Below the pieces are notes generated by a model, which ran no database searches, was not told where the DNA came from, and saw nothing but the letters and a program-made list of their open reading frames with translations. A program made the translations under genes and the position numbers. From an uncultured Candidatus Saccharibacteria bacterium (GTDB lineage Bacteria > Patescibacteriota > Minisyncoccia > Phycocordibacterales > UBA5272), in contig CAZWMQ010000001.1 of the NCBI GenBank assembly GCA_964635125.1, positions 150,386 to 209,271 on the forward strand: a DNA stretch of 58,886 nt, given 5' to 3'. Of the stretch, positions 6,463 to 44,710 are shown in pieces (within the stretch, counting starts at the first letter, position 1; every line of letters starts with the position of its first letter).

Positions 6463-6583
6463 TTAAGTCGTAAGTGTAGCAAGAAGTTATATATAATTTG
6501 ACTATTATATAATATTATGTTATTTTATAGTTGTTAAAATTATTGTTCATTTTAAAAATTTATAGAAATTGGAAAAGTTAAAT

Positions 6584-7138
6584 ATGATAGTTTATGCTTG
6601 TGATTTCCATTTAGGAAAAGCTGGTATTGAAACTAAAGTAAGAATTGGGACAGCATTAGATCTAATGTTAAAGAGAAGAATGTCTTATTATGATCTATTC
6701 TTAGGAGCTGGAAATTTTAAGGAAGATAGCCGATCCTGGTCAGCCAAGAAGATCATGTATTCTGCTTTTAAGAGTATGCTCTTAGAAACAGGAGCAATCT
6801 CAAAAAATAGAAGTGTAGATGTTAATACAAAAACTTTCATTTTAAGAAATAGAAGTGTATTACACATCCACTTAGCTAAAAGAAAAGCTTGGGGAAGCTT
6901 TGAGGAGACTAATGCTTGTATTGAGGAAATGAAGGATTTAAGTCTTTATAACAATAGTCTTTATGTTGTTTCCTCAGACTATCATATTAAAAGACTAAAA
7001 TTTATTTATAAGTTTATGCCTATAAAAAAGGTAGAGTTTATTCCAGTTAGGTTTAATCAATCTAATAAGGATAAATTTTTAGAACCTTTAAGATATGCTA
7101 AGGCTTTGAAGCAAGGTCTTACAAAGACTTTTTTTTAG
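6584..7138 (+). CDS. YdcF/DUF218-like hypothetical protein
   Basis: Weak family motif YVVSSDYHIKRLKFIY preceded by SFEETNA; ATG at 6584 (track uses TTG 6569). Confidence 0.45.
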   Translation: MIVYACDFHLGKAGIETKVRIGTALDLMLKRRMSYYDLFLGAGNFKEDSRSWSAKKIMYSAFKSMLLETGAISKNRSVDVNTKTFILRNRSVLHIHLAKRKAWGSFEETNACIEEMKDLSLYNNSLYVVSSDYHIKRLKFIYKFMPIKKVEFIPVRFNQSNKDKFLEPLRYAKALKQGLTKTFF

Positions 7139-7163
7139 TCTTAGTCTTTTAAAAAAAAAATTT

Positions 7164-7192
7164 AAAGCGGTTATGGTATAATCGCTTTTTTT
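7164..7192. terminator. Hairpin terminator between convergent units
   Basis: AAAGCG...CGCTTT stem followed by a T-run. Confidence 0.5.
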
Positions 7193-7276
7193 TTCTTAAG
7201 CTGTATTTTCCCGTGGCTTGCTACTCTTTACTTGCCACTTGTATGCCACTTTCACTAAGTTTCAGTGAACCGAAGG

Positions 7277-7349
7277 TGGACGATAGAGGATTCGAACCTC
7301 TGACATCTACAACGTCAATGTAGCGCTCTACCAACTGAGCTAATCGTCC
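7277..7349 (-). tRNA. tRNA-Val(GAC), CCA not fully encoded
   Basis: Cloverleaf: GGACGAT/ATCGTCC acceptor, CTACA-TTGACGT-TGTAG anticodon arm, GGTTCGAATCC T-arm. Confidence 0.95.
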
Positions 7350-7511
7350 AATTTAGAAAATTATAACACAAAGTACTTATTTTTTGAATTAGTTTTTTAA
7401 TAAAATTCTTTAAAATAAAGTTAATTTACATATATACTTTTGAATCATTTTGTGATAAAATATGTTTATTAATTAGCTATTATTACCAATTAATTAAAGA
7501 GGCTATTATTT

Positions 7512-11730: not shown

Positions 11731-12138
11731 ATGGAAGATAAAATATATAAAGTCAATAAAACTACAAAATTAGGTTTAATACTTTTAATGATACAATTTG
11801 TTTTAGGTTCAGTTGTTGGATTATGACATAAAGCTCCAAGCGAAGGTCCATCCCCAGCTTTGGCTAATTTAGCTTTTAATCTACATATAGCTGTAGCCAT
11901 CTTATTATTAATTGTAAGCATTATCTTAGTCGTTAGAGCTAGTAAGGTTAATAACCAGAAAGCCAAATCTTTTGCTTTAAGGGGATTGATTAGTGTAATT
12001 TTAGCAATAATAGGAGCAAGTTTTATATTCTGGTTTCAGCAAGGAGCGGTTTGAGGATTATTTATAATGGCAATTGGATTTCTTGGAGCAGTCGCGAATT
12101 ATGTAAAGGAATATATTGTAATTAATAGGATGAGATAG
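11731..12138 (+). CDS. Four-TM hypothetical membrane protein, 135 aa
   Basis: ATG 11731, TGA at 11824-26 and 12052-54 read through, TAG 12136-38; four hydrophobic helices. Confidence 0.7.
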
Positions 12139-12182
12139 TTATTAAACTATCAAAAAAGCTTGACCTCTTCTACATTATTTTA

Positions 12183-12350
12183 GTGATCTAATCATAACCT
12201 TTGCGCGAAATTATTTCGAGAGCCACTAATCATGCCGACCAGCGCCTCGGAGTACCTCGGCGCTCCGCCCTCGCCCCGTTTCCGCCTTTCCATGCTTTTT
12301 ATTTTTCGCGGGGGGATTCTTTTTGAAATTGTATGGGGCGGAAACGGGGC
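12183..12350 (+). repeat. Arm A: 168-bp perfect inverted repeat of 16387-16554 (attL arm)
   Basis: Base-by-base reverse complement match read from the sequence. Confidence 0.95.
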
Positions 12351-12876
12351 TCGGTCGGGCTTCTTCTAAGGAAGAAGCGATCGTCATGAAATGCAGTGGT
12401 GCTCGGGATTTCTTCGTTAGTGTTATCGTCCAGTGACCAAAGGGGATGCACCCTCGGCATCCGCCTCGGGCATTTCCGCTAGGGCTACTCGCGCCTAGAT
12501 GCCTAGGATTCCTGCTTATCCTCGCCAGTGCGCTCTGCGGAGCGCTGGCTCGGGCAGGAAACTTGTTGGGGGAAGGAAGGGTTCCTTCCCCCAGCTTCGC
12601 CTCGGTTCGTGCTCGCTACGCTCGCATTCCGCAGAGCGGAACAGGGCTCACCCCACCCGGCTCGCACAACCCCCATCCTCGTTTTCATATCCGCGTTTTG
12701 TGGTATCGCTTTCGCTGCTAGATTTCTGTATTGCAAGGTAACGGCGGCGCTCATCCTTTAGTCATGGACGCCCTAGCGGAAATGCCCGAGGCTCAAATTC
12801 TTATGTGCTTGCCCCGCGCCACCCATGCGCGCACATCCCGCCCGCAAAGGACAGGAGGGATCGCGGGCGGGGCTCC

Positions 12877-13749
12877 CTAGATAGAATCTAAAACAGTTTT
12901 CACTTCACCCATAAACTCAAATATCAAATCGTTTGAGATAATAATTCCCAAACTTTCATTCTCATCACCATTCACCATCGCAGGAATCCCAATCCTGCAT
13001 CCATACTGATCAACCGCTAACCCACCAGAGTTACCATGACTTATCTTTGCTGAAGTAAAAATTAAACCCTCATCCACAAGCAAACTACTCACAACCCCAT
13101 CTGTAATTGTTAGTGCGTATCCACCACTAATTGCAGGGTAGCCATAAATTTTCACAGGTTCTCCAAGTATTACATTTTCGTTTTTACAATACCGAGTGTC
13201 ATCATATGCAGGGAATACTTTAGGGTAATCGCCATGTGCCACACCCTCATCATCAATAAAGACATCGTGAATTTGAACAAACGCGAGATCATACTGATCG
13301 CTGATTTCAGGAATTACAATCGGATATGCTGAATAAATTTCACTTGGTGCGCCCGTGCTTGGATCAGGTAATATTACCAAGCAAACAGGGACTGCTTCCT
13401 TATCGGCAAGGACTGGAATTATGTGGGCATTTGTCAAAACAAGACCATCATCTGTCATTATTGTCCCAGAGCCGCCAGATGTATCTTCCTCTGTATTTCC
13501 CTCGCAATAAATATTCACAACAGATTTCGCAATTTCTTGATCTGTTGTAGTGGATGGTTCTATAGGAGTAAAAAGCCATACTCCAAAGATTAGAATTAAA
13601 ATTATCACACCCAAAATAACCAACTTCTTTTTTGTAAAAAAGTTTTTCTTTGGCGTCACAATATCTTTAGTCGTTGAATTATCCACTCCACAATTTGTGC
13701 AAAATTTTGTGCCCTCCTTATTTTCTTTACCGCAATGTTTGCAATACAT
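12877..13749 (-). CDS. Zinc-ribbon + TM + trypsin-like serine protease, 290 aa
   Basis: Start MYCKHCG...FCTNCG at 13749; TM; catalytic triad motifs TNAH, YDLA, GNSGG. Confidence 0.85.
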   Translation of the reverse strand: MYCKHCGKENKEGTKFCTNCGVDNSTTKDIVTPKKNFFTKKKLVILGVIILILIFGVWLFTPIEPSTTTDQEIAKSVVNIYCEGNTEEDTSGGSGTIMTDDGLVLTNAHIIPVLADKEAVPVCLVILPDPSTGAPSEIYSAYPIVIPEISDQYDLAFVQIHDVFIDDEGVAHGDYPKVFPAYDDTRYCKNENVILGEPVKIYGYPAISGGYALTITDGVVSSLLVDEGLIFTSAKISHGNSGGLAVDQYGCRIGIPAMVNGDENESLGIIISNDLIFEFMGEVKTVLDSI

Positions 13750-13751
13750 AA

Positions 13752-14216
13752 TTATTTTGGAGTGACCGCAGTGCCACAATTACCACAAAATTTGAGTTCC
13801 TTCGTAATTCCTGTTCCGCAACTGCCACAATAACTAAGATTTTCATCTGCACTTGCCAACTTTTTTGTCTCTATAACTTCAGCTTGAACAGTGTCCGGAG
13901 TACCGCCGTTTAGATGATTTAATTTTGCTTGATATTCCTCTTGTGTGATTTTTCCATCAAGTAATAACTGATTTGCTTCTGCAAGAGGTTTTATTTGTTC
14001 GGTTTGTTTGCTGTCCAAAGTTAAACCACGCTGGCATACTGGACAGCTAAGAAAATATTTTATTGAGTAGGGAAAAACTGGAATAAAAAAGAGTGTAAAC
14101 CATGTCATTATTCTAGTCAGCACCCAATAATCCTCATTGTGACAATTTGCACATAGATTTTTGAATGTAACCCCGATTTGTTTAATTGTTTGGTGCCCCC
14201 ATCCAAAAATAATCAT
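13752..14216 (-). CDS. Zinc-ribbon protein (N-terminal CxxC..FFIP..CxxC, SHOCT-like segment, C-terminal CxxC..CxxC ribbon)
   Basis: MIIFGWG..CANC..TWFTLFFIP..CPVC; LLDGKITQEEYQAKL; CGSC..FCGNCG. Confidence 0.8.
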   Translation of the reverse strand: MIIFGWGHQTIKQIGVTFKNLCANCHNEDYWVLTRIMTWFTLFFIPVFPYSIKYFLSCPVCQRGLTLDSKQTEQIKPLAEANQLLLDGKITQEEYQAKLNHLNGGTPDTVQAEVIETKKLASADENLSYCGSCGTGITKELKFCGNCGTAVTPK

Positions 14217-14221
14217 GTTAT

Positions 14222-14614
14222 TTAAAAGAGTTTTTTAAACTCATCTCGCCATATTGGTTTTTGGGCGAGTGCTATATATAAAACTGTTAATTTGATCAAG
14301 CGAAGTACAACTACAAAAATTACTATTGCAAGAACTGAATACCAGAATGCTGCGCCCGTAGTGTCTTCATATCCTCCATAATAACTCCAACTTGTGCTAT
14401 TTACTGACCAAACGACGGGTACAATCCAAAGAATCTGTATGTATAAAAATATGTATGCAACCTTTAGCAAACGATGCCACCATCGTTCATCAAGATTTTT
14501 TACAGGAGTTTTATTTATTCTTGATACAGTTGGAGAGGACACGATAGGATGACCGCATTTGGTGCAAAATTTATGAGTCCCATCATTTTTATTTCCACAG
14601 TTTTCGCAGTACAT
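14222..14614 (-). CDS. Zinc-ribbon + two-TM membrane protein
   Basis: MYCENCG...FCTKCG followed by two hydrophobic helices. Confidence 0.8.
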   Translation of the reverse strand: MYCENCGNKNDGTHKFCTKCGHPIVSSPTVSRINKTPVKNLDERWWHRLLKVAYIFLYIQILWIVPVVWSVNSTSWSYYGGYEDTTGAAFWYSVLAIVIFVVVLRLIKLTVLYIALAQKPIWRDEFKKLF

Positions 14615-14615
14615 A

Positions 14616-15521
14616 TTAATTATTGTTTATATAATCATAAACTTCCTGTGGCACTTCCATGCCTCCCGCTATAGCTTGTCTAAGATAAATTTTTGCATTA
14701 ACCGGATCTTCTTTTTGTGCGTACGAAAGTCCTAAGAAATACGCATAGACAGGTTCTCTACTAATATCTAAAGATTTCAGTAATGAAATCGTTTGGCTAT
14801 AGTTTTCATTAAAGTAATACGCAAGAGCAAGATTCTTTTTTGAGACATTGTCATTTTGGAGCTGATTTGCTTTTTGTGCGGAACTTAAAGCTTTAGTGTA
14901 GTCGGTGTATTGAGGATGAGCATCCTGCAAATCCATATAAAACAGCGCTAGTGAATTATTCACTTGAAAATCCTCAGAGTCTTTTGCATACGCCTTATTG
15001 TAGGAAATTAAAGCTGCATTATATTTACCTTCTAGCTCCGCAATCTCTCCAGAAATTAGGAAATAATCAACGGAATCTGTGGTTGTCAATGCAAGTGCCT
15101 CTTTAAAAGTATTTAGTGCTAAATCGTCTTTTCCCTCATGCGAATAAGCATAGGCTAGATTTTTTAAGCTGTTTATTTTGTTTGTGCTTGTTATTGCATC
15201 TTGTGAAGCCTGTTGAAATTGCGAGATTGCTTGATCACTATTTCCTGAATTGTAAGCATCCAAGGCCTTATTATTTGTTTCGACAGCAGTATTATCAACA
15301 GAGTTGATTGCCCCGAAGATAATTTTGACCAAAATCAACCCGCCAACAATTACAACAACAGCAACAGTTTTTATAATTCTACCTGTTGTCCAGGGTTCTT
15401 TAGGGATTGGAGGACGGACAGGCGGTGGAGGTGTTGTTTGGGTGACTGAAAATGCGGTTCCGCAATTAGTACAGAATTTTTTTGTGCCATCTGATTCAGT
15501 TCCGCAATTTTTACAAAACAT
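14616..15521 (-). CDS. Zinc-ribbon + Pro-rich linker + TM + TPR protein
   Basis: MFCKNCG...FCTNCG, TPPPPVRPP, TM, helical repeats (ALDAYNSGNSDQAISQFQQA, NLAYAY, ALISYNKA). Confidence 0.8.
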   Translation of the reverse strand: MFCKNCGTESDGTKKFCTNCGTAFSVTQTTPPPPVRPPIPKEPWTTGRIIKTVAVVVIVGGLILVKIIFGAINSVDNTAVETNNKALDAYNSGNSDQAISQFQQASQDAITSTNKINSLKNLAYAYSHEGKDDLALNTFKEALALTTTDSVDYFLISGEIAELEGKYNAALISYNKAYAKDSEDFQVNNSLALFYMDLQDAHPQYTDYTKALSSAQKANQLQNDNVSKKNLALAYYFNENYSQTISLLKSLDISREPVYAYFLGLSYAQKEDPVNAKIYLRQAIAGGMEVPQEVYDYINNN

Positions 15522-16080
15522 ATTTTTCTATTGATTGACGCAAACGATCGACCTCCTTTTGACTCTTTTGGAGGACTAATTTTTGCTCACCTTGAGTCAA
15601 GGTAAATTTGTTTTTTCCAAACTCAATTTTACCTTTTAATTCGTGTAGTGGTATTTTAAGAAAAACATCATTTACCCAGTGATTTGATGTGAGCTTGCCG
15701 TCAACCACCCACGCAGATCGATACCACTTACGCTTCTTTGTGTCGTTAGAACCACCAATTGCCACTCCAATCGCCATGCCAATAATATTTGCAATTACAA
15801 GACCGATGAAAAATCCCCACGCAGCACCACTGTATGAAGGTAATTTGATTGCATAAAGATTATCTTTATCAACCATAACATCCATGTATGGAAGAGAAAC
15901 AACAGCCCAAACTTTTTTACGACGCCAATCTTCACTATAAAAATCTGCTGTACCAAAAGACACAGAATCTTGTGTCTTAGGGGATGTTTTAATTTCTGAA
16001 GTGCCAGCTGTTTTACGACCGCAGTTTTGGCAAAATTGAGCATCCTTTTCTAGTTTTGTACCACAGTGTTCGCAAAACAT
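15511..16080 (-). CDS. Zinc-ribbon + glycine-rich TM protein
   Basis: MFCEHCG...FCQNCG; GAAWGFFIGLVIANIIGMAIGVAIGG. Confidence 0.8.
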   Translation of the reverse strand: MFCEHCGTKLEKDAQFCQNCGRKTAGTSEIKTSPKTQDSVSFGTADFYSEDWRRKKVWAVVSLPYMDVMVDKDNLYAIKLPSYSGAAWGFFIGLVIANIIGMAIGVAIGGSNDTKKRKWYRSAWVVDGKLTSNHWVNDVFLKIPLHELKGKIEFGKNKFTLTQGEQKLVLQKSQKEVDRLRQSIEKYVL

Positions 16081-16084
16081 AAAT

Positions 16085-16306
16085 TTATTTTATGAAATAG
16101 TCGATGCTTTTATTATAAATTTTAGCAAAGTTTTGAAGCTCGACTACATCTACTCTTTGCTGTCCCGATTCAACATTAGAAATATGCGATTGCGGACGCC
16201 TTAATTTCTTTGCCACTTCGGTTTGAGTCAATCCTGCCTCGAGTCGAGCTTTCCGTAATCGCTCGACAAAATAGGCATATTCCTTTGTTTGTCTTGACCT
16301 AGTCAT
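16085..16306 (-). CDS. XRE-family helix-turn-helix regulator
   Basis: LRKARLEAGLTQTEVAKKL..PQSHISNVESGQQR. Confidence 0.9.
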   Translation of the reverse strand: MTRSRQTKEYAYFVERLRKARLEAGLTQTEVAKKLRRPQSHISNVESGQQRVDVVELQNFAKIYNKSIDYFIK

Positions 16307-16386
16307 ATACTAACATTATCTATCCAAGAATTCAATATCCAAACTTTAGATATTGTGATAAACTAGATTTTGAAGACTTAGCCCTC

Positions 16387-16554
16387 GCCCCGTTTCCGCC
16401 CCATACAATTTCAAAAAGAATCCCCCCGCGAAAAATAAAAAGCATGGAAAGGCGGAAACGGGGCGAGGGCGGAGCGCCGAGGTACTCCGAGGCGCTGGTC
16501 GGCATGATTAGTGGCTCTCGAAATAATTTCGCGCAAAGGTTATGATTAGATCAC
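16387..16554 (-). repeat. Arm A' (inverted copy of 12183-12350)
   Basis: Perfect reverse complement; ends in TCAC 16551-54. Confidence 0.95.
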
Positions 16555-16665
16555 ATTCAGAAACTTCTCGGTCGGAAAGACCAAAATGGGCGCGCGCCGA
16601 AGGCGCGCTGTGTGGCGTGAATGCGAACTCTGCCTTGCGAATGCGGGCGAAATCGGAGGGCGGGC
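16551..16665 (+). repeat. Arm B: 115-bp perfect inverted repeat of 18135-18249
   Basis: Base-by-base reverse complement; shares TCAC core with arm A'. Confidence 0.95.
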
Positions 16666-16720
16666 TGAAAGCAAGAAATGAGATCTTAGTAGTTTCTCGT
16701 TTTGAATCCAAAATCTATTT

Positions 16721-18307
16721 ATGAACAAACCAAAATATTTTCTCTATGCTCGCAAGAGCACCGAAGATGATGATAAGCAAGTGATGTCGATTGAGGCACA
16801 GCTTTTTGAGCTTCGTGAATTTGCGAGCAGAGAAAATCTTGAAATTCTTGAGGAATTTCAAGAGTCGAAAAGCGCAAAGAGTCCGGGACGAGAAGTGTTC
16901 GGCGAAATGATGATGCGCATTGAAAAAATGAATGGAGTTGGTATTCTCGCGTGGCATCCTGACCGCTTGGCGAGAAATAGCATAGACGGAGGGCGCATCA
17001 TTTACGCCGTCGACACTTCAAAAATCGTCTCTTTGCGTTTTCCGACATTTTGGTTTGAACCGACACCGCAGGGGCTCTTTATGTTGCAAGTGGCGTTCGG
17101 CCAATCGAAATATTATTCCGACAATTTGAAACAAAATGTGGAGCGAGGTATGCGCCAAAAATTGCGCCGAGGAGAATGGCTTACAAAAGCTCCTTTCGGG
17201 TATGTGAATAATCCGCGAACGAGGAATATCGAACCTGATCCGGTGAAATCAAAGATTATCGTTCGCGCGTATGAACAATACGCAAAAGGAACACATACCC
17301 TCATTTCGCTGGCACAATTTTTGGCTGACCACGGTGTGACTACGAAGGCCGGAACGCCACTTGGCAAAGCTTCCGTGAAAAGAATGCTGACCAATCGTGC
17401 CTATTTGGGATTTACCAAGCATCGCGACGAGTATTTCACCGGAAGCTTTGCGCCAATTCTTTCTCCGACACTATTTGAAGCTGTGCAAAAGCAACTTTCT
17501 GAGCGAGCGCATCCAAGACATACGAAACAAGCACACGATTTTCCGTTTACCGGACTTTTTCGTTGTGGCGAGTGTGGGAGCATGATCACTGCACAATGGG
17601 CGACTGGCAAGTGCGGTGGGCGGTATCGGTATTATCGGTGCACGAAAAAGAACGGCGTGTGCTTGCAAAAGTATTTACAGGAAGATGCGCTCGCTCTCCA
17701 AGTAAAGGAACAGCTTCAATCAGTGTCGCTTCCCGAAGCGTGGGCGGAATATATGCTCAAAAAAGTAGAGGATTTTGAGCATGACGAAAAGAACGCTTCG
17801 GGAAGTCGTCTCGAACAGATGAAGAATGACCTCAAGAAGCTTGAAGCGAAGCTCGATGCGCTCGTTGATTTGTATCTAAATGGTGATATTGAGCGCGAGG
17901 CGTATCTCGCAAAGAAAGATGGTTTAATACGCCAAAAAATCTCGCTTCAAGCAAAATCTTCATCTGCCCGAGCCGAGAGAAAGAATTGGGTCGAACCCCT
18001 GCGGAAGTGGATTTTGGATTCAAAACACGCGGGGTTTCTGGCAAGCAGTACAAAGTACGCCGAAATGCGCGACTTTGTCCGTTCCTTCGGAACGAACCCC
18101 GCGCTTTTAAACAAAACTATTTCGATCTCATTTTGCCCGCCCTCCGATTTCGCCCGCATTCGCAAGGCAGAGTTCGCATTCACGCCACACAGCGCGCCTT
18201 CGGCGCGCGCCCATTTTGGTCTTTCCGACCGAGAAGTTTCTGAATGTGACCTTACCGGGAATCGAACCCGGATTACCGGCTTGAGAAGCCGATGTCCTAA
18301 CCGTTAG
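16721..18307 (+). CDS. Large serine recombinase (resolvase + recombinase + zinc ribbon + coiled coil)
   Basis: YARKSTE catalytic motif, AWHPDRLARN, KAPFGY, CGECG..RYRYYRC; last about 20 codons run antisense through tRNA-Glu. Confidence 0.95.
   Translation: MNKPKYFLYARKSTEDDDKQVMSIEAQLFELREFASRENLEILEEFQESKSAKSPGREVFGEMMMRIEKMNGVGILAWHPDRLARNSIDGGRIIYAVDTSKIVSLRFPTFWFEPTPQGLFMLQVAFGQSKYYSDNLKQNVERGMRQKLRRGEWLTKAPFGYVNNPRTRNIEPDPVKSKIIVRAYEQYAKGTHTLISLAQFLADHGVTTKAGTPLGKASVKRMLTNRAYLGFTKHRDEYFTGSFAPILSPTLFEAVQKQLSERAHPRHTKQAHDFPFTGLFRCGECGSMITAQWATGKCGGRYRYYRCTKKNGVCLQKYLQEDALALQVKEQLQSVSLPEAWAEYMLKKVEDFEHDEKNASGSRLEQMKNDLKKLEAKLDALVDLYLNGDIEREAYLAKKDGLIRQKISLQAKSSSARAERKNWVEPLRKWILDSKHAGFLASSTKYAEMRDFVRSFGTNPALLNKTISISFCPPSDFARIRKAEFAFTPHSAPSARAHFGLSDREVSECDLTGNRTRITGLRSRCPNR
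18135..18249 (-). repeat. Arm B' (attR arm, within recombinase 3' end)
   Basis: Reverse complement of 16551-16665, abutting the tRNA-Glu 3' end at GTGA. Confidence 0.95.
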
Positions 18308-18318
18308 ACGATAAGGCC
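18247..18318 (-). tRNA. tRNA-Glu(CTC), integration target
   Basis: GGCCTTA/TAAGGTC acceptor, TCGGC-TTCTCAA-GCCGG anticodon arm, GGTTCGATTCC. Confidence 0.95.
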
Positions 18319-18624
18319 GTTCAGGTTGCAAGTTTCAAGCTTCAAGTTATAAGAAATTAAAGCTATTTTGTATAAAACCCGAGCTAACAGCTCAATATCT
18401 TTAGATTTTGAGATTTTATAATTTTATCACATTTTTAGTCTTTTATCAAAAACCCTTATAAAATAAGCTTATTTTAATCATATTATATTGACAAAATTAA
18501 GATAAAGTTGTATAACTATTGACTTTTAGGATGAAATTTGCTAAGATATAAGAGTTGAGCAATAAGCTCATTTTTTGTTTGCCAATTTCTGTATTTGATA
18601 GTTCGCGGAGCTAAACCGCATATT

Positions 18625-19239
18625 ATGTTAAATAAATTCAAAAATACTCTATTAGTTATGGCTTTTATACCATTACTAGCCGTAACCTCAGTAGAGTTAC
18701 ATACAGCCCCTATTGAATTAGCAAGTAATAACCCTATTTCTAGTTCAAAGGAAATTAAGAAACAAGAAATATCTAACGATATTGATCAAGAAAGACTTGA
18801 AAAAGCTTTAAAAATAGAAACTTATTTCAAGAACAGATCTATGCCACTCGCTAAATACTCTATGCAATTTGTATTAGTAGCTGAGAAATATGGCTTACCT
18901 TATGATTTCTTACCTGCTATTGCTGTTCGTGAGTCGTCTGGTGGAAAGAGAGATATGAATAATAATCCTTTCGGTTGGGCCTCAGCTAAAGTAATATTTA
19001 GTGATTATAACGAAGCTATTGAAGTAGTAGGTAAAAACTTAGGCGGAGCTAATCCTAAAACTGCTAATTATTATGGTAATAAGTCAATCGAAAAGAAACT
19101 TTATTATTATAATGGAACAGTAATTGATGGATATGAAGATGAAGTTATGGCTATCATGGATAAAATCGATGATACCAAAGTAGATACTGGAATTAATAAG
19201 AAAAATCATAAAACTATTGAATTAGCTTTAAATCAATAA
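18625..19239 (+). CDS. Secreted lysozyme-superfamily cell-wall hydrolase (SLT/glucosaminidase-like)
   Basis: Signal/TM N-terminus; YGLPYDFLPAIAVRESSGGK..NNPFGW; ATG 18625 preferred over TTG 18595. Confidence 0.7.
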   Translation: MLNKFKNTLLVMAFIPLLAVTSVELHTAPIELASNNPISSSKEIKKQEISNDIDQERLEKALKIETYFKNRSMPLAKYSMQFVLVAEKYGLPYDFLPAIAVRESSGGKRDMNNNPFGWASAKVIFSDYNEAIEVVGKNLGGANPKTANYYGNKSIEKKLYYYNGTVIDGYEDEVMAIMDKIDDTKVDTGINKKNHKTIELALNQ

Positions 19240-19251
19240 AAAAGTCTAAAA

Positions 19252-19280
19252 ACAAACCCCACAATAAAAGTGGGGTTTGT
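19252..19280. terminator. Bidirectional intrinsic terminator
   Basis: ACAAACCCCAC/GTGGGGTTTGT stem between convergent genes. Confidence 0.75.
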
Positions 19281-19319
19281 GCTATTTAGTCTAAGGAGAT
19301 TAATATGTTTATAATTTTA

Positions 19320-19631
19320 TTATTCAGCTTTTTTATCTAATTTATTTAACGGAGATTTCACAAATAATAGATAGACAACTAAAAGTATTGAAAGGAAAGT
19401 AATCAATTCAGAAATTAGATCACCATAACCGAAAGTTACTTTAGTGTGTGGAATGGTGAAAGCATAGCTTTCTAATCCTTTTCCACCACCAACAATAGTT
19501 CCTAAGATTGGATTAATTAAATCTTGGATGATAGCATTGACCATTTTAGTAACTGCGCCACCTAAAATTATACCAACCGCCATACCAATTACAGAATGTT
19601 TTCTAACAAAATCTATAAAATCTTTTACCAT
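19320..19631 (-). CDS. mscL: Large-conductance mechanosensitive channel MscL
   Basis: FIDFVRKHSVIGMAVGIILGGA..DLINP..YGDLISELITF. Confidence 0.85.
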   Translation of the reverse strand: MVKDFIDFVRKHSVIGMAVGIILGGAVTKMVNAIIQDLINPILGTIVGGGKGLESYAFTIPHTKVTFGYGDLISELITFLSILLVVYLLFVKSPLNKLDKKAE

Positions 19632-19757
19632 ATTTTTATTTTTTTTATTTATATTTATAACTTTCATAGGATAACAAAAATAGTCTTTTACATCAAGAAA
19701 AGTGATTTTTTAAAAGATAGGTTTTATGTTAAAATAGTTGAATAATTAAATATTATT

Positions 19758-19845
19758 GGAGACGTGGCTGAGCTGGCCGAAGGCACCTCACTGCTAACGA
19801 GGCAGGGAAGAAATTCTCTCATGGGTTCGAATCCCATCGTCTCCG
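19758..19845 (+). tRNA. tRNA-Ser(GCT)
   Basis: GGAGACG acceptor, CCTCA-CTGCTAA-CGAGG, long variable arm, GGTTCGAATCC. Confidence 0.95.
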
Positions 19846-19894
19846 CTATAAAATAATGAACCCAAAATAAAATTCTGGGTGATTTATTTTATAG

Positions 19895-20119
19895 GTGAAG
19901 CCAAAATTTGAAATTTCAAAAAAACAAGGCTTATTTTTTGCAAACTCATTACATTTTTTAAATAAAAAGTTTGGGTATGAAAACATGTGTTCCTGGGAAA
20001 AAATTAAAAATGAGAAAATTCAGTTGCCAATTAAAAATGGTAAAATAGATTTTGATTTCATGGAGTCATTTATAGCGGAGCTAGAGGCATATTTATTGGC
20101 TACTGGATTAAAAAAATAA
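19895..20119 (+). pseudogene. 3' remnant of a restriction-modification specificity (S) subunit
   Basis: Only 74 aa; IQLPIKNGKIDFDFMESFIAELEAYLLATGL resembles S-subunit C-terminal helices; no partner genes nearby. Confidence 0.55.
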
Positions 20120-36296: not shown

Positions 36297-36818
36297 TTAA
36301 ATAGATTTAACTTTTACTTTAGAAGTTTTAGCTTTATCAACTTTAGGTAATCTTATGATTAATAAGCCATGTTTCTCAACTGCTTCAACTCCTTCAATCT
36401 CAATCTCATGTGGTAGAAGAATACTTCTAGAGAAAGATCCCCAATAAAGTTCTTTATAAAAATAATCATCGTCAGTAATTTGAGTATTACCATCTCTACG
36501 GCCTTTAATAGTGACCATATCTCGGGTTATAGAGATTTGTAGATCTTCTGGCTTAACCCCAGCTAGCATTGATTCAATTATAATCTCATTAGGAGTTTGA
36601 TAAACATCAACTGAAAGTTCACCATCTTCTTCATACTCTTCTTCTGGCTCCAAGTTAGCTATTTTTTTTTCAGTTTGAATTAATTTTTTACTAGGAGTTT
36701 TTTCTAAGGGAACTTCATATTCTTCTTCATCTCCATATTCTTCCTCATCTCTATCATTATCATCAACCATGACAGAGCCAGCTAATCTCTCAAAGAATGA
36801 TCTTTTATCTTTTGACAT
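36297..36818 (-). CDS. Hsp20/alpha-crystallin small heat-shock protein with acidic N-terminus
   Basis: VDVYQTPNEIII..LAGVKPEDL..ELYWGSFSRSILLP..HGLLIIRLPK. Confidence 0.9.
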   Translation of the reverse strand: MSKDKRSFFERLAGSVMVDDNDRDEEEYGDEEEYEVPLEKTPSKKLIQTEKKIANLEPEEEYEEDGELSVDVYQTPNEIIIESMLAGVKPEDLQISITRDMVTIKGRRDGNTQITDDDYFYKELYWGSFSRSILLPHEIEIEGVEAVEKHGLLIIRLPKVDKAKTSKVKVKSI

Positions 36819-36943
36819 ATAATTTAATTATTTTTTAAAGTTAAACCTTAATAAGTATATTATTATTATACCTATTATTTTTATTTTCTACAATAAAAAT
36901 TTATAGAGTTATCCACATTTTTAAATTTTACTATAAAATAGTC

Positions 36944-39121
36944 TTAATTTTTTACCCAATTTGTAACTAATAGTAAATCTTCGCTAACATTTTTAATATC
37001 TTTTCAGATCTCTTCAGTAAGAAAAGGCATAAATGGATGTAAAGTTATAATTAGATTTTTCAAAGTTATATATAAAGTAGCTTGAGCGGAAACTTTATCT
37101 TTATTATCATTAATTCTTACTTTTAAAGTTTCTAAATATTTATCACAGAATTCATGTCAGAAAAAAGCATAGATTCTCTCGCTAGCTAAATGTAGGCGAT
37201 AATTCTCAATATCTTCGGTTATTTCTTTAATTGTATTTAGAGTTTGATTATAGATATTTTTATCCTCTCCATTAATAATATTCTTAATATGATCTTGTTT
37301 TTTATCATAGTTTTCAGTTTTTTCTAAAACTAATCTGGTGGCATTTCAAACTTTATTAGCGAAATTTTTATAAGCTTTAACTTTATCTTCTGACAATCTT
37401 AGATCATTTCCTGGACCATTGCCAACTATTAAAGACATTCTTAAAGCATCAGTTCCATATTTGATAATTAATTCTCTAGGATCTAGAGCATTACCTAAAG
37501 ATTTACTCATTTTTCTGCCTTGATTATCACGAACCAGTCCATGTAAATAAGTTGCTTTGAAAGGAATTTGATTTAAGGCATATTTACTCATCATAATCAT
37601 TCGAGCTACTCAGAAAAATAAAATGTCATGTCCAGTTTCTAATAAATTAGTTGGATGATATTTTTTGAGATCAGGAGTTTTCTCAGGCCAACCCAAGGTG
37701 GAGAAAGTCCACATACCGCTTGAGAATCAAGTATCAAGTGTATCTTCGTCTTGAATTAAACTATCATCATCATTAAAGCCAACTGCTTTAATTTTTTTAT
37801 TTTGATCATATCAAACCGGAATACGATGACCATATCAGATCTGTCTTGAGATACATCAATCTTTTAAATTATTTACCCAATGGAAATATATTTTAGAAAA
37901 TCTCTCTGGAATAATTTCTAAATTATCTTTCTCAACGGCTTCTAGCATTAACTTTTTTAATGTGGTTCTATTTCCAAAGTGATTAAATTCTTTATTCACA
38001 GCGACAAATCATTGTAATTTCGGAAGTGGTTCAATAATTCCACCGGTTCGCTCAGCGGTGGAAACATTTTGAGTAATTTCTTTTTCCTCAATTAAGAGAT
38101 TATTTTCTTTTAACTTTTCAATGATAATCTCTCTGGCTTCTAGGACTTTTTTACCATCGAGCTCAGTATTAGTATTAATTATTTTGGCAAATTCATTAAT
38201 CACTTGTTTAGATTCTAAATTATGTCTCTCACCAATCTCCTCATCAATCTTAGAGTGAGCAGGAGTAACTCCGAGAGCTCCAGTTCCAAATTCCATATCT
38301 ACTTCTTTATCAGCGATAATTTTAATCTCTAAATTAACTCCACAGAAATTCACTTGAAAAGTTTTTCCGATATATTCTTGATATCGAGTATCATCTCCAT
38401 TAACTGCAACTGCAGTATCACCAAGCTTAGTCTCTGGTCTAGTCGTTGAGATAGCAATCGGAAAGTCTTTATCATATTTAAAAGTATAAAGCATAGCTTT
38501 CCTTTCCTCATAAACAACTTCATCATCAGAAATAACCGTCTGTCCTTTAGGATCTCAATTAATTACTCGATAACCTTGATAGATTAATCCATCTTCATAC
38601 ATTTTCTTAAACATAATATTCACCGCCTCATTTCTTTTTGAGTCTAAAGTGAAAGAAAGGCGAGATCAATCAAGTGTAGCTCCCATCGATTCAAATTGGG
38701 AGAGAATTGTCTCTTGCGAATTTAAAGCAAAATCATTAACTCTTTTTAAAAATTCTTCTCGACCCAGGTCATGTCTTTTAAGATTTTCTTTTTTAAATAA
38801 TTCTTTCTCTACTACCAATTGAGTAGCAATAGCCGCATGGTCAGTTCCGGGAAGTCAGAGAGTGCGATAATGATTCATACGATAATATCTAATAATAGTA
38901 TCTTGGATAGCAAGCATTAAGGCATGTCCAGTGTGAAGTGTCCCAGTAACATTTGGTGGCGGTAAGATCATTGAGAAAATTTTCTCATTATCATCCTTAT
39001 CAAGAGTAACATTTTTTAAATTATCTGGATTGAAATAACCTGAGTCTCGTCAAGCTTTATAATTAGGATTCTCAAACTCTTCTGGATTATAGGCTTTTAA
39101 ATATTTTTCAGGTAACGACAT
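36944..39121 (-). CDS. valS: Valyl-tRNA synthetase (short form lacking C-terminal coiled coil), 725 aa
   Basis: [14 protein letters not shown](W)LPGTDHA, D(W)CISRQI(W)YGHRIPV(W)Y, DT(W)FSS, KMSKS; about 13 in-frame TGA; TAA 36944-46. Confidence 0.95.
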
Positions 39122-39195: not shown

Positions 39196-39720
39196 ATGAA
39201 AAAAATGAAAAAGCAAGATAAAGTTTTAAAAAAAGTTTCCCCATTAGCTAAAGAATTATCAAGAAAAGTTTCTAAAGATAAAAATAAAAAGAAAACTGCC
39301 ACTGATAAGTATTTCTTGCCAGACCATCATTTTAAAAAAGTAAAAGTCAAAAGAGGATTAAACGGACTTGGCTTATTTGCTGGTGAAGATATTAAGAAAG
39401 GTGAATTAATTATTGAATATATTGGAAATATTCTTACGGATAAAGAAACGGATAAAATTCCAGACAGTAGATATATTTTTTCAGTATCAAAAAATCATAA
39501 TATAGACGGAACTCCAAGATGGAATTTAGCCCGTTATTGTAATCACTCATGTGATGGTAATGCCGAGAGTGATGTTAAAAAGAAAAGAGTTTTTGTTCGA
39601 GCCATTAAGAATATTAATAGCGGTGAAGAAATAACTTATGATTATGGAGAAGAATATTTTAAAGAATTTTTATTAGGGCATTGTATGTGCGGAGCAGAGA
39701 AACATTTGTATAGCGATTAA
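39196..39720 (+). CDS. SET-domain protein lysine methyltransferase
   Basis: GLGLFAGEDIKKGELIIEYIG, RYCNHSCDGN, EEITYDYG, post-SET CMCG. Confidence 0.92.
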   Translation: MKKMKKQDKVLKKVSPLAKELSRKVSKDKNKKKTATDKYFLPDHHFKKVKVKRGLNGLGLFAGEDIKKGELIIEYIGNILTDKETDKIPDSRYIFSVSKNHNIDGTPRWNLARYCNHSCDGNAESDVKKKRVFVRAIKNINSGEEITYDYGEEYFKEFLLGHCMCGAEKHLYSD

Positions 39721-39926
39721 AAATTTTCTAAAAATAATTTTAGAAAAATAAAAAAATCTGAAAAATATTTTTTATAAAAATAAAAAAGTTATCCACAAAA
39801 ATTTTTAAGAAAAGTATTGTGAAATTATTTTTTAATGAGATAATATTATTAGAGAGGCATGATCAAAGGTCCAAGATCAAAATTATAAGCGCACTCTCAA
39901 GTATTTAATACTTTAAAATAAATAAT

Positions 39927-40001
39927 ATGGCAGCAAAGAAAAAAGCAGCAAAGAAAAAAGTTGCTCACAAGAAAAAAGCAGCTAAGAAAAGAAGAAAATA
40001 G
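39927..40001 (+). CDS. 24-aa Lys/Ala-rich histone-H1-like peptide (not in track)
   Basis: MAAKKKAAKKKVAHKKKAAKKRRK*; own promoter-like region upstream and terminator immediately downstream. Confidence 0.75.
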   Translation: MAAKKKAAKKKVAHKKKAAKKRRK

Positions 40002-40021
40002 TTTTTCTTAAAGCTTAAATT

Positions 40022-40055
40022 AAAATCCTCTGCGTCTCCCACGACAGAGGATTTT
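40022..40055 (+). terminator. Intrinsic terminator after the Lys-rich peptide gene
   Basis: AAAATCCTCTG/CAGAGGATTTT stem then T-rich tract. Confidence 0.75.
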
Positions 40056-40157
40056 AGTTTTCATCTATCTTTTATTTATTTAAAATTTTATTTTTTTAAG
40101 GTATAATTGTAATTAGTTAATATTATTAGAATTATTAAATTATAAGTATCATTATAT

Positions 40158-40529
40158 ATGAATATTGAAATTAGAAGTAATGAAGTATTAATTACTGAAG
40201 CTATTAAAAGTTATTTAGAAAAAAGAGTAATTGAGTCTCTAGAAAAATTTTATAAAGGAGATAAGATTAAAGATGTTTTTGTAAGTATAGAAGTGGTTAA
40301 ATTAAGTAATAGCCACAATAAAGGCGATCAATATAAAGTCTCAGCAAATATTATAAGTAGAGGGGAGAAAGTTTTCTTTGTTGAATCTACCGGCCTAGAT
40401 CTTTATGCAATTATTGATAATTTAAAAAATAAGATAATTAATATAATAGTTAGTACTCATGGTAAGAAAGAAAGCCTATCAAGAAGAATGGCAAGTCAAT
40501 TTAAAAAAATGTTCAAGAGAAGTAATTAA
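40158..40529 (+). CDS. Ribosome hibernation promoting factor (HPF/RaiA family)
   Basis: [28 protein letters not shown]. Confidence 0.8.
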
Positions 40530-40531
40530 GT

Positions 40532-41200
40532 ATGAAATCAACTATAAAAATAAGTATAATCGTTGTTGTAATTATAATAATCTTGTCTTTTTTCTTTGAT
40601 AGGAGTCCAAATCTAGGTGGAATGGATAATTCTTTTTCTTATACAAATAATAATTCTAATAAAGATAAGGGGGAAATTAATAATAAAAATAATCAATCTA
40701 AAAATATGTTAAATGATAAACAAAATTATTCTTTAGTAACTTTACACACTAATCTTGGAGATATTACTTTTGAATTAGCTAAAGACAAGCCTAAAACTAC
40801 AGAAAATTTTATTAAATTAGCAGGCGAGGGATTTTATAGCGGGATTAAATTTCATCGGGTGATTAAAGGATTTATGATACAAACGGGTGACCCACTTTCT
40901 AAAGATGATAGTTTGAAACCTCGCTGAGGAACAGGAGGACCAGGTTATCAATTTGAAGATGAATTAACCGGTAGTGAAAAATATACAATCGGAACTGTAG
41001 CTATGGCAAATGCTGGACCAAATACCAATGGCTCTCAATTCTTCATTATGACTAGTAATACTCCATTACCACCATCTTATACAGTTTTTGGTAAAGTAAT
41101 CACTGGGCAAGACATAGCTAATCAGATCTCAGAAGTTGAAACCGATTCTTTGGATCGCCCAGTAAAAGATATAGTTATAAATTCAGTTGATTTAAAGTAA
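40532..41200 (+). CDS. Membrane-anchored cyclophilin-type peptidyl-prolyl isomerase
   Basis: [21 protein letters not shown], (W)[26 protein letters not shown]; TGA 40925-27. Confidence 0.93.
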
Positions 41201-41219: not shown

Positions 41220-42113
41220 TTATTTTAAATAACCCTTTTTAAAATCTGTAAAACTCATTTCTTTTTTGCCTTCTGGAATAACTTTTAAAATAATTTCATC
41301 AGCCAATTTATTTTTAGCCCAGTCTTTATTTAAGTTAACTTGGCTAACTTTTACTCTGATCAATTTCTGATTATTTTTATTATGAATAAAGAAAAAGATT
41401 GGAATATGAGGCGGTAAAGCTTTAAATTTATTTTGGATTTCTTGCGACGGGTCATTTAAAGAGATTTCCCCGTCGTCTTTTTGAAATTTATAAGTAAAGG
41501 TTGCTTTACTATGATCTTGTTCAATTGGAATTAATTTATGGTTAAGGTAATTATTAATATTATCAATTATTAATTTTGCTCCTCGCTCTCCAGCCAAGCT
41601 TTCTAAGTCTAAATTAGTTTCCATTTCTTGAATTGAAAATATTTTCTGAATTAAGATTGGGCCATGATCCATTTCTTTATCTATTTTCATTATACTGATT
41701 CCTAGTTTGTCATCTCCATTAATTAAAGCAGTTTGAATCGGAGAAGGTCCTCGATAAAGTGGTAATAATGAAGGGTGAATATTAATAACTCCATCTCTAA
41801 ATAAATTTAAAAACCCTTCTTTTAAAATTTTTGGATAAGAAGCAACAATTGCTAAGTCAAATTTTTCTTTTAACGGAGTATCTTGAAAGTTAATATCTTT
41901 TAATGTTTCTGGTTGTCAATAAGAAATATTATTATCTTTAGCAATTTTAACTATCTGATTTTCGATTTCTTTTAAGCCTCGTCCAGAAGATTTGTTCGAA
42001 GTAGTAATAATTAAGCTCGGCTTTCAATTGTTATTTAAGAAGGTTTGTAAGGAAGATATAGCTAATGGTCCAGACCCTAAAAACACCCATTTAATATCTT
42101 TATAGTTTTTCAT
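41220..42113 (-). CDS. fmt: Methionyl-tRNA formyltransferase
   Basis: INIHPSLLPLYRGPSPIQ, MDHGPI; TGA 42024-26 and 41916-18. Confidence 0.93.
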
Positions 42114-42748: not shown

Positions 42749-44710
42749 CTATTTTATATTTAGACTTAATGATAATGAATATAATTTTCTAGTAAGTGAT
42801 GTTGGAGTTATTTTTTTATCTTTTTTATTTTGATAGAGATTTTTAGGAATAGTTAAAGAGATTTCATATAAATTATTTTTCTTGTCGATTTTCCAGATCG
42901 GTTCAGTATTTAATTTTTCTTCAGATACGATTCTTTTTAGTATCTTTTCAAAATTATTTTTAAGTTTTTCGTTTTTAGCTTCAATTTTTCAATTTAAAGT
43001 AATCGTAAATGGAGGAAGGTTTAATTGTTTTCTTAATTTTAATTCATCTTCTAGAAATTTAACTTTTTGATTATTTAAAATATATTTTCATATCGACTGC
43101 TTCATTAATCTAGTTTGAATAATTATTTCATTCTTAGACCTAGTCTTTTCGTTTAATTCTAAAATTAAATTAAAGATTTTACTATCTATATCTATTTCGG
43201 GAATAGCAAACAATGAATCAAGTGAAATTATAGAAACTAAGTCAGTTCTATAATCAGTATTTAAGAAATTTAAAGCTAGCTCTGTACCAATTAAGATGCT
43301 TGCCTCTTTCTCATTTTGTCAATCCTGAATTGTTTTTAAGATCTCCTTCTTGGTTTTCTCTTGATCGCTATCTAAAATAAAAGTCTTAAAACCAATCTCT
43401 TTTAAATTCTTAGCCACGGCTTCACTCCCAATACCGAGAGTTTTCATTCTCCAACTATTACAATTTTGGCAAATTAGATTTTTATTTTTGTCTAAATTTA
43501 GAATTTCTTTACAATTTTGACATTGATAAATTTTATCTCCAGCTTTATTCTTCACTAGAAGATAGGGTTTATCACATTTTGGACAAGTAAATATATTCTG
43601 ACAATCTTCACAAATAGTTACTGGATAAAGTCCTTTTCTTTTTACAAATAGAAACCCTTTACCACTATTCTTTTTAAGATTTTCTAATTTATCAATTAAT
43701 TCTTCACTAAAATATACTTTATTATATGAATTAGTTTTTTGATTATTTTTTAAAATTTTAAGATTATTTTTAATTTCTTTTTCCTCAATATCATCTTTAT
43801 TTTGACTGATTAATTTAAGATTTAATTTCTGATTATTATTTCTAACTTCCACTTTATTTTCTTTAGCTTCTAGATAAGTATTCATAGTTAAAAGTCGACC
43901 ACTAATCAATAAATTAAGATTTAAGTCTAACGAGACTTTTTTAATAACCTCTCGAAAATCAATCGGTTTAGAAATTAAATTATTTAAGTAATGTGGAGAG
44001 ATCTCATTATCTAAGACTATAGTTTCTAAGTTAATTTTGTCTTTAATTAGAATTGGAAAAAGAGAGGGAGTTGAGATAATTAAGAATAGGTTTTTAGAAT
44101 TAAGTTTTTTCAAGTTTTCTTTTAAATTTTTATTGCTTAATTTAGAGTGAAAGCTGAGTATATTTTTATTAGATATATTTCTCTTAAAATAATTTTCCAA
44201 AGTCTCAACCTCTAAGATAGTTGGAGTAAATATAACTATTGAATTATTTTTTTTAAACTCTTTTTGAGTTAATTTTAGATATTCATTTTGTCGATTAGTT
44301 AGATCTTCTAAGAGATAATTGGTTGTATTTCTATTTCTTTTCGACTTCAAAGTATCTTTATTGTTTAAGATTTTTGAATTATCATAAATAAAGTTTGGAA
44401 AATAATTACTTAAAATATCATTAATTTTGACAGATTGAAGTATGGCGATATCTTTTAGACTTTGAAAGAAGATTTCATCAATAAAATTCTCTTGAATAAC
44501 TTTTTCTATTTTTTTTAGAGTGAATTTTTTAGTCTTAATGTTTAGTTTTTGAGATTTAGCCAGAGATATATTATTAACTAGGCCAAGAATTTTACGATTT
44601 TTAATCTTTATTTCTACCAAACTACCGAGATTTAATAGTTGATTATGAAAATAAGTATAAGATTCATCTGGAAAACCTTTAGCGATTGGAATAATATCTA
44701 AAATATACAT
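42749..44710 (-). CDS. priA: Primosomal protein N' (PriA)-like, degenerate helicase motifs, 653 aa
   Basis: GSLVEIKIKNR 3'-binding domain, four CxxC motifs, LGIGSE, LIGTE, SLDSLF.IP; TGA 43319-21, 43088-90, 42989-91; TAG 42749-51. Confidence 0.8.

Follow-up and report, generated by a model that had tools for sequence, protein, structure and literature searches.

A lysine/alanine-repeat micro-gene with a DnaA-box-type site and two conserved RNA motifs, linked to a SET methyltransferase gene in Paceibacteria

The micro-gene and its product

The DNA analysed here, a stretch of 58,886 nucleotides from contig CAZWMQ010000001.1 (hereafter the window; GC content 30.6%), contains a gene for a SET-domain lysine methyltransferase that is followed by a small open reading frame (sORF) of 24 codons and then by a gene of the HPF/YfiA family. 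The sORF encodes MAAKKKAAKKKVAHKKKAAKKRRK, a peptide with 12 Lys, 2 Arg and neither Asp nor Glu. A first-pass annotation of this DNA had drawn attention to the SET gene, to the 24-residue frame with a terminator of its own and to the HPF gene, and it placed all of them correctly, on the plus strand. We find that the frame is, judged by the comparison of its copies, a real and conserved gene that accompanies the SET gene across Paceibacteria, and we read its product, tentatively, as a peptide that coats nucleic acid and that the SET enzyme may methylate.

Through a SET alignment, 80 genome loci were collected, of which 64 Paceibacteria loci had enough 3' flank to be evaluated; the metagenome-assembled genomes (MAGs) from which the SET homologues and syntenic loci come are labelled Paceibacteria, Parcubacteria, Nomurabacteria or Patescibacteria. 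The frame of the sORF permits no upstream extension, and in the public gene calls of the contig the interval from SET to HPF is empty. A filter for Lys/Ala-rich frames returned the sORF as its single match in the 58.9-kb window, and in about 740 kb of related loci its matches were confined to the orthologous position and strand. These orthologues are 21 to 70 residues long and consist of [AVT][AV]KK repeats, with at least 38% Lys plus Arg and no acidic residues. Both ends are kept: the N-terminus as MAAKKKAAKK (variants MVAKKK and MAVKK), and the C-terminus as [ST]AKRA, or as KKK/KRK in the low-GC clade.

The pattern of variation is that of a coding sequence. All 62 copies keep the frame open although their lengths range from 66 to 213 nt, and stops interrupt the two alternative frames in 41 and 44 of the 58 distinct sequences. 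Over codons 2 to 12, without any pre-selection of sequences, the entropy at codon positions 1, 2 and 3 amounts to 5.3, 7.8 and 10.6, and it is flat (14.9, 15.6 and 14.5) over the 33 nt 5' of the sORF. AAG makes up 63% of the Lys codons in the sORFs versus 33% in the flanking genes, the share being higher in 58 of 60 loci, and the longest run of A in the sORFs does not exceed 8, as would be expected if selection acts against poly(A) slippage during translation. The RNA of relatives is also represented in public data: three wastewater metatranscriptomes hold contigs with a close relative of the sORF cassette of locus L018 at a depth of 38 to 127, as against 0 to 6 over the SET region, which, given that contig depth is a rough measure and that DNA may be carried over into such contigs, suggests that the sORF transcript is among the more abundant ones.

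Gene callers handle this gene poorly. A protein search with a 40-residue orthologue returned five proteins only, because low-complexity sequence scores poorly; all five belong to the same family and are mis-called at the N-terminus. In four such entries (P0121-P0124), the called sORFs run 20 to 35 codons too far 5', through the RNA leader described below, and thus appear as spurious "hypothetical proteins" of 60 to 70 residues.

The peptide belongs to no curated family in Pfam or NCBIfam, in which it gives sub-threshold compositional matches only. The HC2 model (PF07382) matched the longest orthologue alone (E = 1.9; 9 bits, cut-off 40) and did not match the 24-residue peptide; the Hc1 model matched no member of the family. 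NF038053 (histone H1-like, Burkholderia) reached 12.4 bits against a cut-off of 80, and there was a weak sub-threshold match to the Rv3852 family. The longest peptides gave their top match, also weak, to positions ~980-1042 of NF011492 (PRK14900 valine-tRNA ligase), which form a Lys/Ala-rich C-terminal tail; although a ValRS gene lies one gene away from the sORF, this is most likely a coincidental low-complexity similarity. What the family does have is Lys/Ala-rich repeats in variable number, and in its composition and the variability of its repeat number it resembles the C-terminal tails of H1, Hc2 and PAKKA-type tails. The term "histone-H1-like", which the first-pass annotation had used, is therefore apt for the H1-tail- and Hc2-like composition, but not in the sense of membership in the Hc1 or Hc2 sequence families. 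The A-K-K-S-A-K-R-A C-terminus and the A-A-K-K-K N-terminus of the peptide are reminiscent of the ARKS-type sequences around H3K9, H3K27 and H1.4K26; this low-complexity similarity is only a lead.

Table 1. Positions of the features discussed, counted from the first base of the window
Feature	Position	Strand	Details
SET-domain lysine methyltransferase gene	39196-39720	+	174 aa; Pfam SET E=3.2e-25
AGTTATCCACA box with DnaA-box 9-mer	39787-39797	+	exact 11-mer at all sORF-bearing loci
Distal sORF promoter (predicted)	39817-39844	+	promoter scan; conserved alignment columns
5' leader element (P1 + P2)	39851-39899	+	covariance model R1
Proximal -10-like box TAAAAT	39914-39919	+	sequence, alignment of copies
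sORF, Lys/Ala-repeat polycationic peptide MAAKKKAAKKKVAHKKKAAKKRRK	39927-40001	+	24 aa; exact translation
Intrinsic terminator hairpin, CUCCCA loop at 40036-40041	40017-40060	+	minimum free energy, stem covariation
HPF/YfiA-family gene, short form	40158-40529	+	123 aa; Pfam PF02482 (Ribosomal_S30AE)
Hsp20/alpha-crystallin gene	36297-36818	-	Pfam HSP20 E=6.7e-17; member of hsp20-ValRS-SET-sORF block
Second AGTTATCCACA box	36907-36917	+	inverted relative to the minus-strand hsp20 promoter

Promoter region, 5' leader and terminator

An alignment of the 160 nt upstream of all sORF copies (62 loci) revealed that AGTTATCCACA is identical, and at the same place, in each sORF-bearing locus. The strict DnaA-box consensus TTATCCACA, a form of the more general DnaA-box 9-mer TTATNCACA, makes up the final nine bases of this box, and DnaA is presumably the factor that acts at this site. 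The box ends about 20 nt 5' of the -35 hexamer of the predicted distal sORF promoter. In the window, this promoter consists of a -35 TTGTGA, a 16-nt spacer and an extended -10 TG-n-GATAAT; across the loci, it takes the form of a -35 TTGT(A/G) followed after 16-17 nt by an extended -10, reading TTGT...TGnCATACT in the main clade and TGAGATAAT in the low-GC clade. Both hexamers lie in conserved columns of the alignment.

Exact TTATCCACA is found at 39789-39797 and at 36909-36917, and nowhere else in the 59-kb window. The second of these sites, part of another complete AGTTATCCACA, is located about 13 nt 5' of the -35 (TTGTAG) of the hsp20 promoter, in an orientation opposite to that at the sORF promoter. 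Upstream of hsp20 in main-clade loci, the box stands about 11 nt from a -35 TTGACA. A 9-mer with at most one mismatch from the box is present at the same place 5' of hsp20 in 56 of 56 loci (within the range L001-L067), most of these 9-mers fitting TTATNCACA, whereas the chance expectation of such a 9-mer per intergenic region is about 0.04. Because the box is conserved at both promoters, hsp20 and the sORF may answer to one regulator, for which DnaA would be the parsimonious candidate. An origin of replication, considered as the cause of the DnaA boxes, was ruled out: the GC skew is monotonic, without a turn, the boxes are isolated and no origin is seen in the window. Nor was the RDH[ST]T[VI] signature of dnaA found in the window.

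Between the distal promoter and the sORF lies a leader element of 45 to 55 nt that starts with AGAGAG, ends with CUCUC and encloses a hairpin presenting GGUC. In the structure, which was derived from folds of the single sequences, a pairing scheme specified by hand and a covariance model (R1), the outer helix P1 pairs GAGAG(GC) with (GC)aCUCUC, and P2 is the hairpin with the conserved GGUC. The model gives one strong match per locus, and in the window it matches the leader alone (E = 0.006). In the alignment fitted to the model, compensatory changes are present in 7 of the 7 pairs of P2, which is 96.5% paired versus 30-47% in slid controls, and its G.U wobbles are compatible with plus-strand RNA only. 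The GAGAG/CUCUC of P1 is invariant across the loci and thus uninformative on pairing. RNAalifold predicted no structure from the raw MAFFT alignment of the leaders because two clades are out of register in it.

The A/U-rich spacer 3' of the leader holds a second -10-like box 7 nt from the ATG, reading TAAAAT in the window and TGTATAAT in the main clade, which may be a second promoter giving a leaderless mRNA. Just 3 of the 47 long genes of the window have a Shine-Dalgarno-like motif, and many have TATAAT 7-15 nt 5' of their ATG, which suggests that leaderless mRNAs, or mRNAs with very short leaders, are widespread in this organism. The start of the sORF, which also lacks a Shine-Dalgarno sequence, is therefore normal for it.

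The sORF is followed by a hairpin of 16 pairs (minimum free energy -21.9 kcal/mol, z = -8.3 versus shuffles) and then by UUUUAGUUUUC, a U-rich tail. It has the features of a Rho-independent terminator, namely a GC-containing hairpin at the end of a gene with a U-tract after it. It escaped the consensus terminator scan, which admits only loops of 3-8 nt. Such a hairpin occurs once in the window. Its counterparts 3' of the sORF are stable in all 62 loci (z < -2, mean -5.7), and when 48 distinct sequences were aligned without gaps, compensatory double changes were seen at each of the 13 stem pairs, with 91% pairing versus 42-56% when slid, and a covariation score of 0.79 versus 0.18 for shuffles. 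The loop contains TCCCA in 58 of the 62 loci, usually as CUCCCA. That the loop is held constant while the stem changes implies that some partner acts on it in trans; within the leader, no UGGGAG to pair with CUCCCA was seen by eye.

Neither RNA element is represented in Rfam 15. At gathering score, the whole window yielded tRNAs only, and an E-value search of 39700-40170 gave a best score of 24.6 bits against a cut-off of 50 and matched neither the leader nor the 3' hairpin. The Rfam Histone3 model gave a weak match (11.5 bits, cut-off 34) at 39783-39820, which is outside the 3' hairpin. With its box, predicted promoter, leader and terminator, the sORF bears the marks of a transcription unit of its own, and the earlier call of a micropeptide gene with its own terminator is borne out by conservation, codon periodicity and the terminator hairpin.

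The SET protein and its linkage to the micro-gene

The SET protein matches PF00856 with 89 bits (cut-off 22.4), residues 57-151 covering positions 1-105 of the 105 in the profile. A profile of 28 homologues compared with the PDB had the SET domain of KMT2C/MLL3 as its best match (E = 5.9e-23), with KMT2C, KMT2D and KMT2A all at E = 1e-21 to 1e-23, and the motifs GLGLFA, ARYCNHSC and EEITYDYG align to KMT2C. Residues N116, H117, C119, D149, Y150, C163, C165 and H170 are invariant in the 28 homologues, and G57 and G59 of the SAM-binding GxG motif are invariant or nearly so; Y150 corresponds to the catalytic Tyr. The post-SET motif reads C-x-C-x4-H (C163-x-C165-x4-H170). Together with C119 of NHSC, it would supply the ligands of the post-SET zinc cluster, the fourth being His in place of the canonical Cys (C-x-C-x4-C). 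By its catalytic motifs, the protein is thus an intact MLL-like methyltransferase. Its residues 1-40 carry a net charge of +12; in the homologues, the N-terminal 24-63 residues carry +6 to +15 and the core is near neutral. This basic tail, which contains a conserved KKQ(S/D)K(I/V)LKK motif, fits an enzyme parked on nucleic acid. In two MAGs labelled Bdellovibrionales, the SET proteins (L076 4929-5414 and L077 4995-5456) end in short Lys/Ala/Pro-rich tails, AKPKTEKSKVAAKKSK and AAPKKAKPKSASKKAK, and no separate Lys/Ala-rich sORF was found near their genes. The idea that these tails are a fusion clue to the SET substrate was dropped, since they look like DNA tethers, as does the N-terminal tail of the Paceibacteria proteins.

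In 61 of the 64 evaluable Paceibacteria loci, the sORF is located downstream of SET on the same strand, and in two further loci with a short 3' flank, the start of the cassette is visible. The association also holds in the reverse direction. A DNA-pattern scan of metagenomes that was blind to SET gave 120 matches, 107 due to chance and 13 being true cassettes, and SET lies directly 5' in 9 of the 9 cassettes that could be evaluated. In L068, the upstream neighbour differs, and the SET-sORF pair is still together. The first-pass annotation had named a lack of conserved linkage among the results that would refute its reading; the linkage is conserved across Paceibacteria.

The insert between SET and the sORF in L002 encodes, at 5977-7375, a reverse transcriptase (PF00078) together with a bAvd-like accessory protein, a pair resembling a diversity-generating retroelement. 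SET and the sORF can therefore stand 3-4 kb apart with both genes retained. A similar pair of open reading frames is present at the same place in L001 (6816-8228), judged by sequence only.

The downstream side of the cassette is not conserved. The HPF protein of the window matches PF02482 (E = 2.7e-9, 38.1 bits, cut-off 23.7) and stays under the cut-off of the equivalog model TIGR00741 (36.7 versus 40.9 bits); with 123 residues, it is a short form without the C-terminal domain of long HPF. A promoter scan detected a promoter-like site of its own at 40079-40107. HPF, or HPF-PPIase, lies 3' of the sORF in the window, in 10 of the 61 sORF-bearing genome loci, all of the low-GC subclade, and in 3 metagenome loci. 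In other loci, the sORF is followed by a SecA-like, PilM-like, GlmS-like or kinase-like gene or by a copper-ATPase-like cluster, as assigned from N-terminal sequence only. An iterated HMM search, which found HPF in the 10 loci and the window, ruled it out as a conserved partner. The earlier proposal of a three-gene nucleoid and dormancy module is thus not supported with respect to HPF, which is a neighbour in the low-GC subclade only.

Possible function, parallels and genomic setting

The reading that we favour, at a confidence somewhat short of even, is that the sORF encodes an abundant polycationic peptide of the H1-tail type that coats nucleic acid and that may be methylated by SET. The peptide would coat and neutralise nucleic acid, most likely the nucleoid. 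A factor bound at the DnaA box, presumably DnaA itself, would adjust transcription of its gene, the two conserved RNA hairpins would add post-transcriptional control, and its message would be read without a Shine-Dalgarno sequence. The basic tail of SET should bring this enzyme onto the same nucleic acid, and an intact SET enzyme held there would make the peptide its most plausible endogenous substrate, by analogy with cpnSET and Hc1/Hc2 and with Go1-SET and MC1-alpha. A fuller version, in which a DNA-tethered MLL-type SET and its 21-70-residue H1-tail substrate form a minimal chromatin-like writer-substrate system, coupled to replication by the DnaA-box promoter, controlled by the 5' hairpin and the 3' stem-loop and possibly sharing its regulator with hsp20, is decidedly unlikely to hold in all its parts.

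Several observations weigh against the favoured reading. The order hsp20-ValRS-SET is about as conserved as SET-sORF, and linkage alone is therefore no proof of a substrate relationship; SET and the sORF may be adjacent simply because a single clade has inherited this gene order. The sORF is also served by a promoter of its own, and inserts of 0.5-3.5 kb separate it from SET in about 13 loci. Three SET loci within the clade (L056, L063 and L066) have no cassette, and no such sORF accompanies the distant SET homologues of Moranbacteria, Lloydbacteria, Bdellovibrionales and Caulobacteraceae. No H1-like family model recognises the peptide, and a structured leader and extreme basicity would equally suit a peptide that binds the ribosome or RNA. 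As to the promoter, contigs from three independent metatranscriptome runs (X13-X15) begin at one same base in L018 (5684), which is about 96 nt 5' of the predicted transcription start and 31 nt 5' of the DnaA box. The predicted transcription start is therefore provisional, and the common contig start might stem from read-through, from a further start site or from an effect of assembly.

It is a substantial possibility, though not one we would call probable, that the peptide is real and acts unmodified while its linkage to SET is no more than inherited gene order, the enzyme acting on ribosomal or translation proteins, on other nucleoid proteins or on itself. The comparable synteny of the functionally unrelated hsp20 and ValRS, the separate promoter of the sORF and a contig depth far from that over SET, the tolerated inserts and the occurrence of SET without the cassette, in three loci of the clade and in all distant lineages sampled, would all be explained. 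Less easily accommodated are the reciprocity of the association (61 of 64 and 9 of 9) and the persistence of the pair through the upstream change in L068 and through many downstream changes; moreover, a peptide that is 50% Lys is an obvious substrate for a lysine methyltransferase with a nucleic-acid-type tail. Lineage-specific ribosomal micro-proteins of 24-33 residues occur in other phyla, and the peptide might be a ribosome- or rRNA-associated protein of this kind, comparable to bTHX, bS22 and bL37, with the leader and the 3' loop serving autogenous control as in ribosomal-protein operons. Its tiny size, extreme basicity, strong expression and conserved structured 5' leader would suit such a role, as would the HPF gene immediately 3' in the low-GC subclade. 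We nevertheless place this possibility on the unlikely side, because five family members matched no ribosomal-protein model of NCBIfam or Pfam at E up to 10, because a length of 21 to 70 residues set by repeat number is unusual for a fixed rRNA pocket and typical of tails of the H1/Hc2 type, and because the adjacency to HPF is not conserved.

The other alternatives carry little weight. Characterised bacterial SET proteins are mostly effectors that act on host chromatin (PMC3980110), and the best NCBIfam match of the SET protein is the AnkI/LegAS4 SET family of Legionella, albeit at 43.9 bits against a cut-off of 550. As the first-pass annotation had allowed, SET might thus be a secreted, host-directed effector, the peptide being either unrelated or a polycation co-delivered onto the host. 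Patescibacteria are episymbionts, which would suit this role, but the known hosts of Paceibacteria are, to our knowledge, prokaryotes without H3-type tails. Neither a signal peptide nor secretion-associated neighbours were seen by eye, the surroundings are of the housekeeping type (hsp20, ValRS, PPIase, Fmt and Def), and a basic nucleic-acid-type tail and 55-85% identity of the SET family across the clade speak against such a role as well, so that we regard it as very unlikely. Still more improbable is that the sORF is the Lys/Ala-rich leader peptide of an attenuator, in which the progress of the ribosome would set the terminator and allow read-through into the next gene, here HPF. The run of Lys codons, the strong terminator 15-45 nt on and the co-directional next gene would allow this, as would a conceivable pairing between the A-rich coding RNA and the terminator, which is U-rich in its 3' half. 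Yet such an attenuator would be expected to precede one and the same operon, tied to the over-represented amino acid, in all relatives, and the genes downstream are functionally unrelated among the lineages; HPF has a promoter-like site of its own, the termini of the peptide are conserved as amino acids while its length varies threefold, and the invariant terminator loop would be left unexplained. That the transcript is a non-coding RNA, with a frame that is open only incidentally in A/G-rich sequence, is barely credible: the conserved hairpins at both ends would fit, but the frame is open in every copy when the alternative frames have stops, variation tracks codon position, and a synonymous shift between AAA and AAG breaks the runs of A.

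Bacterial H1-like proteins and prokaryotic pairs of a SET enzyme and a nucleoid protein are known already. In Chlamydia, cpnSET reportedly binds both Hc1 and Hc2 and methylates the former, whereas NUE is a secreted effector that did not methylate Hc1 (PMC3980110). The chlamydial system likewise combines a bacterial SET protein with a Lys/Ala-rich H1-like protein, and Hc2 is described (PMC2848022) as varying in length with the number of its lysine-rich repeats, as the sORF product does. The differences are that Hc1 and Hc2 have 125-237 residues and their own Pfam families, which the peptide of 21-70 residues fails, and that the SET and sORF genes are adjacent, in free-living or episymbiotic Paceibacteria. 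Go1-SET of Methanosarcina mazei methylates MC1-alpha, an endogenous DNA-associated chromatin protein (PMC3980110). This is again a small prokaryotic SET enzyme whose substrate is not a eukaryotic histone; in contrast to the system described here, MC1 is a folded archaeal protein with a single methylated lysine, and that pair includes neither a low-complexity peptide nor a DnaA box or RNA elements.

The nearest solved structures by sequence are those of the MLL/KMT2 enzymes (KMT2C at the value given above, KMT2A at ~2e-21), with which the GxG and NHSC motifs, the catalytic Tyr and the post-SET C-x-C are common. Unlike them, the SET protein of the window is only 174 residues long, has no WRAD-complex partners or other domains, has His as its predicted fourth Zn ligand and bears a polybasic N-terminal tail. 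Repeats of the AKKA/PAKK type are also found in the C-terminus of mycobacterial HupB, in AlgP of Pseudomonas and in the H1-like proteins of Burkholderia, but there they are tails on larger folded proteins, whereas the sORF encodes the repeat alone; as AlgP illustrates, such tails can organise polyphosphate too (PMC9239181). A functional analogy may be drawn with the replication-dependent histone mRNAs of eukaryotes, which would share with the sORF a basic chromatin-type product, a replication-linked signal and a 3' stem-loop with a conserved loop. There is no homology between them, and the hairpin of the sORF doubles as an intrinsic terminator.

A literature search found no paper joining SET domains with Patescibacteria, and one that combined SET with the candidate phyla radiation was on an unrelated topic. 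What is new here is the H1-like tail in the form of a free-standing micro-peptide, its tight pairing with SET in a non-pathogen phylum, the candidate DnaA-box promoter of its gene and two RNA motifs outside Rfam. Patescibacteria account for a large part of all bacterial diversity, and next to nothing is known of how their tiny cells package DNA; the micro-gene is skipped or wrongly extended by gene callers. If SET does methylate the peptide, no simpler pair for lysine methylation of a chromatin-type protein would be known, and this pair would be the first from a bacterium that is neither pathogenic nor chlamydial; were synthesis of the peptide also coupled to replication, the system would offer a bacterial parallel to the replication-dependent control of histone genes. 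The two conserved RNA motifs and the DnaA-box-type site shared with hsp20 also provide an entry to gene regulation in uncultivated bacteria.

Several genes around the locus are intact only when TGA is read through, namely those for ValRS (36944-39121, 13 in-frame TGA codons), PPIase (40532-41200, 1), Fmt (41220-42113, 2) and PriA (42749-44710, 3). Compared with orthologues, these 19 codons align overwhelmingly to Trp (809 of ~850 aligned cells), and the organism is therefore judged to decode TGA as Trp in a code-4-like manner; code 25, in which TGA is Gly as in Gracilibacteria or Absconditabacteria, is ruled out by the same alignment. The close relatives L002-L005 and L008 have no TGA-interrupted genes. 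Elsewhere in the window, a block of GC content 0.40 within a background of 0.28 extends from about 12000 to 20000. It contains a large serine recombinase gene (16721-18304) that abuts a tRNA-Glu (18246-18318) and genes for five Zn-ribbon proteins, of which one has TPR repeats as well and one a trypsin-like peptidase domain, and it is probably an integrated mobile element.

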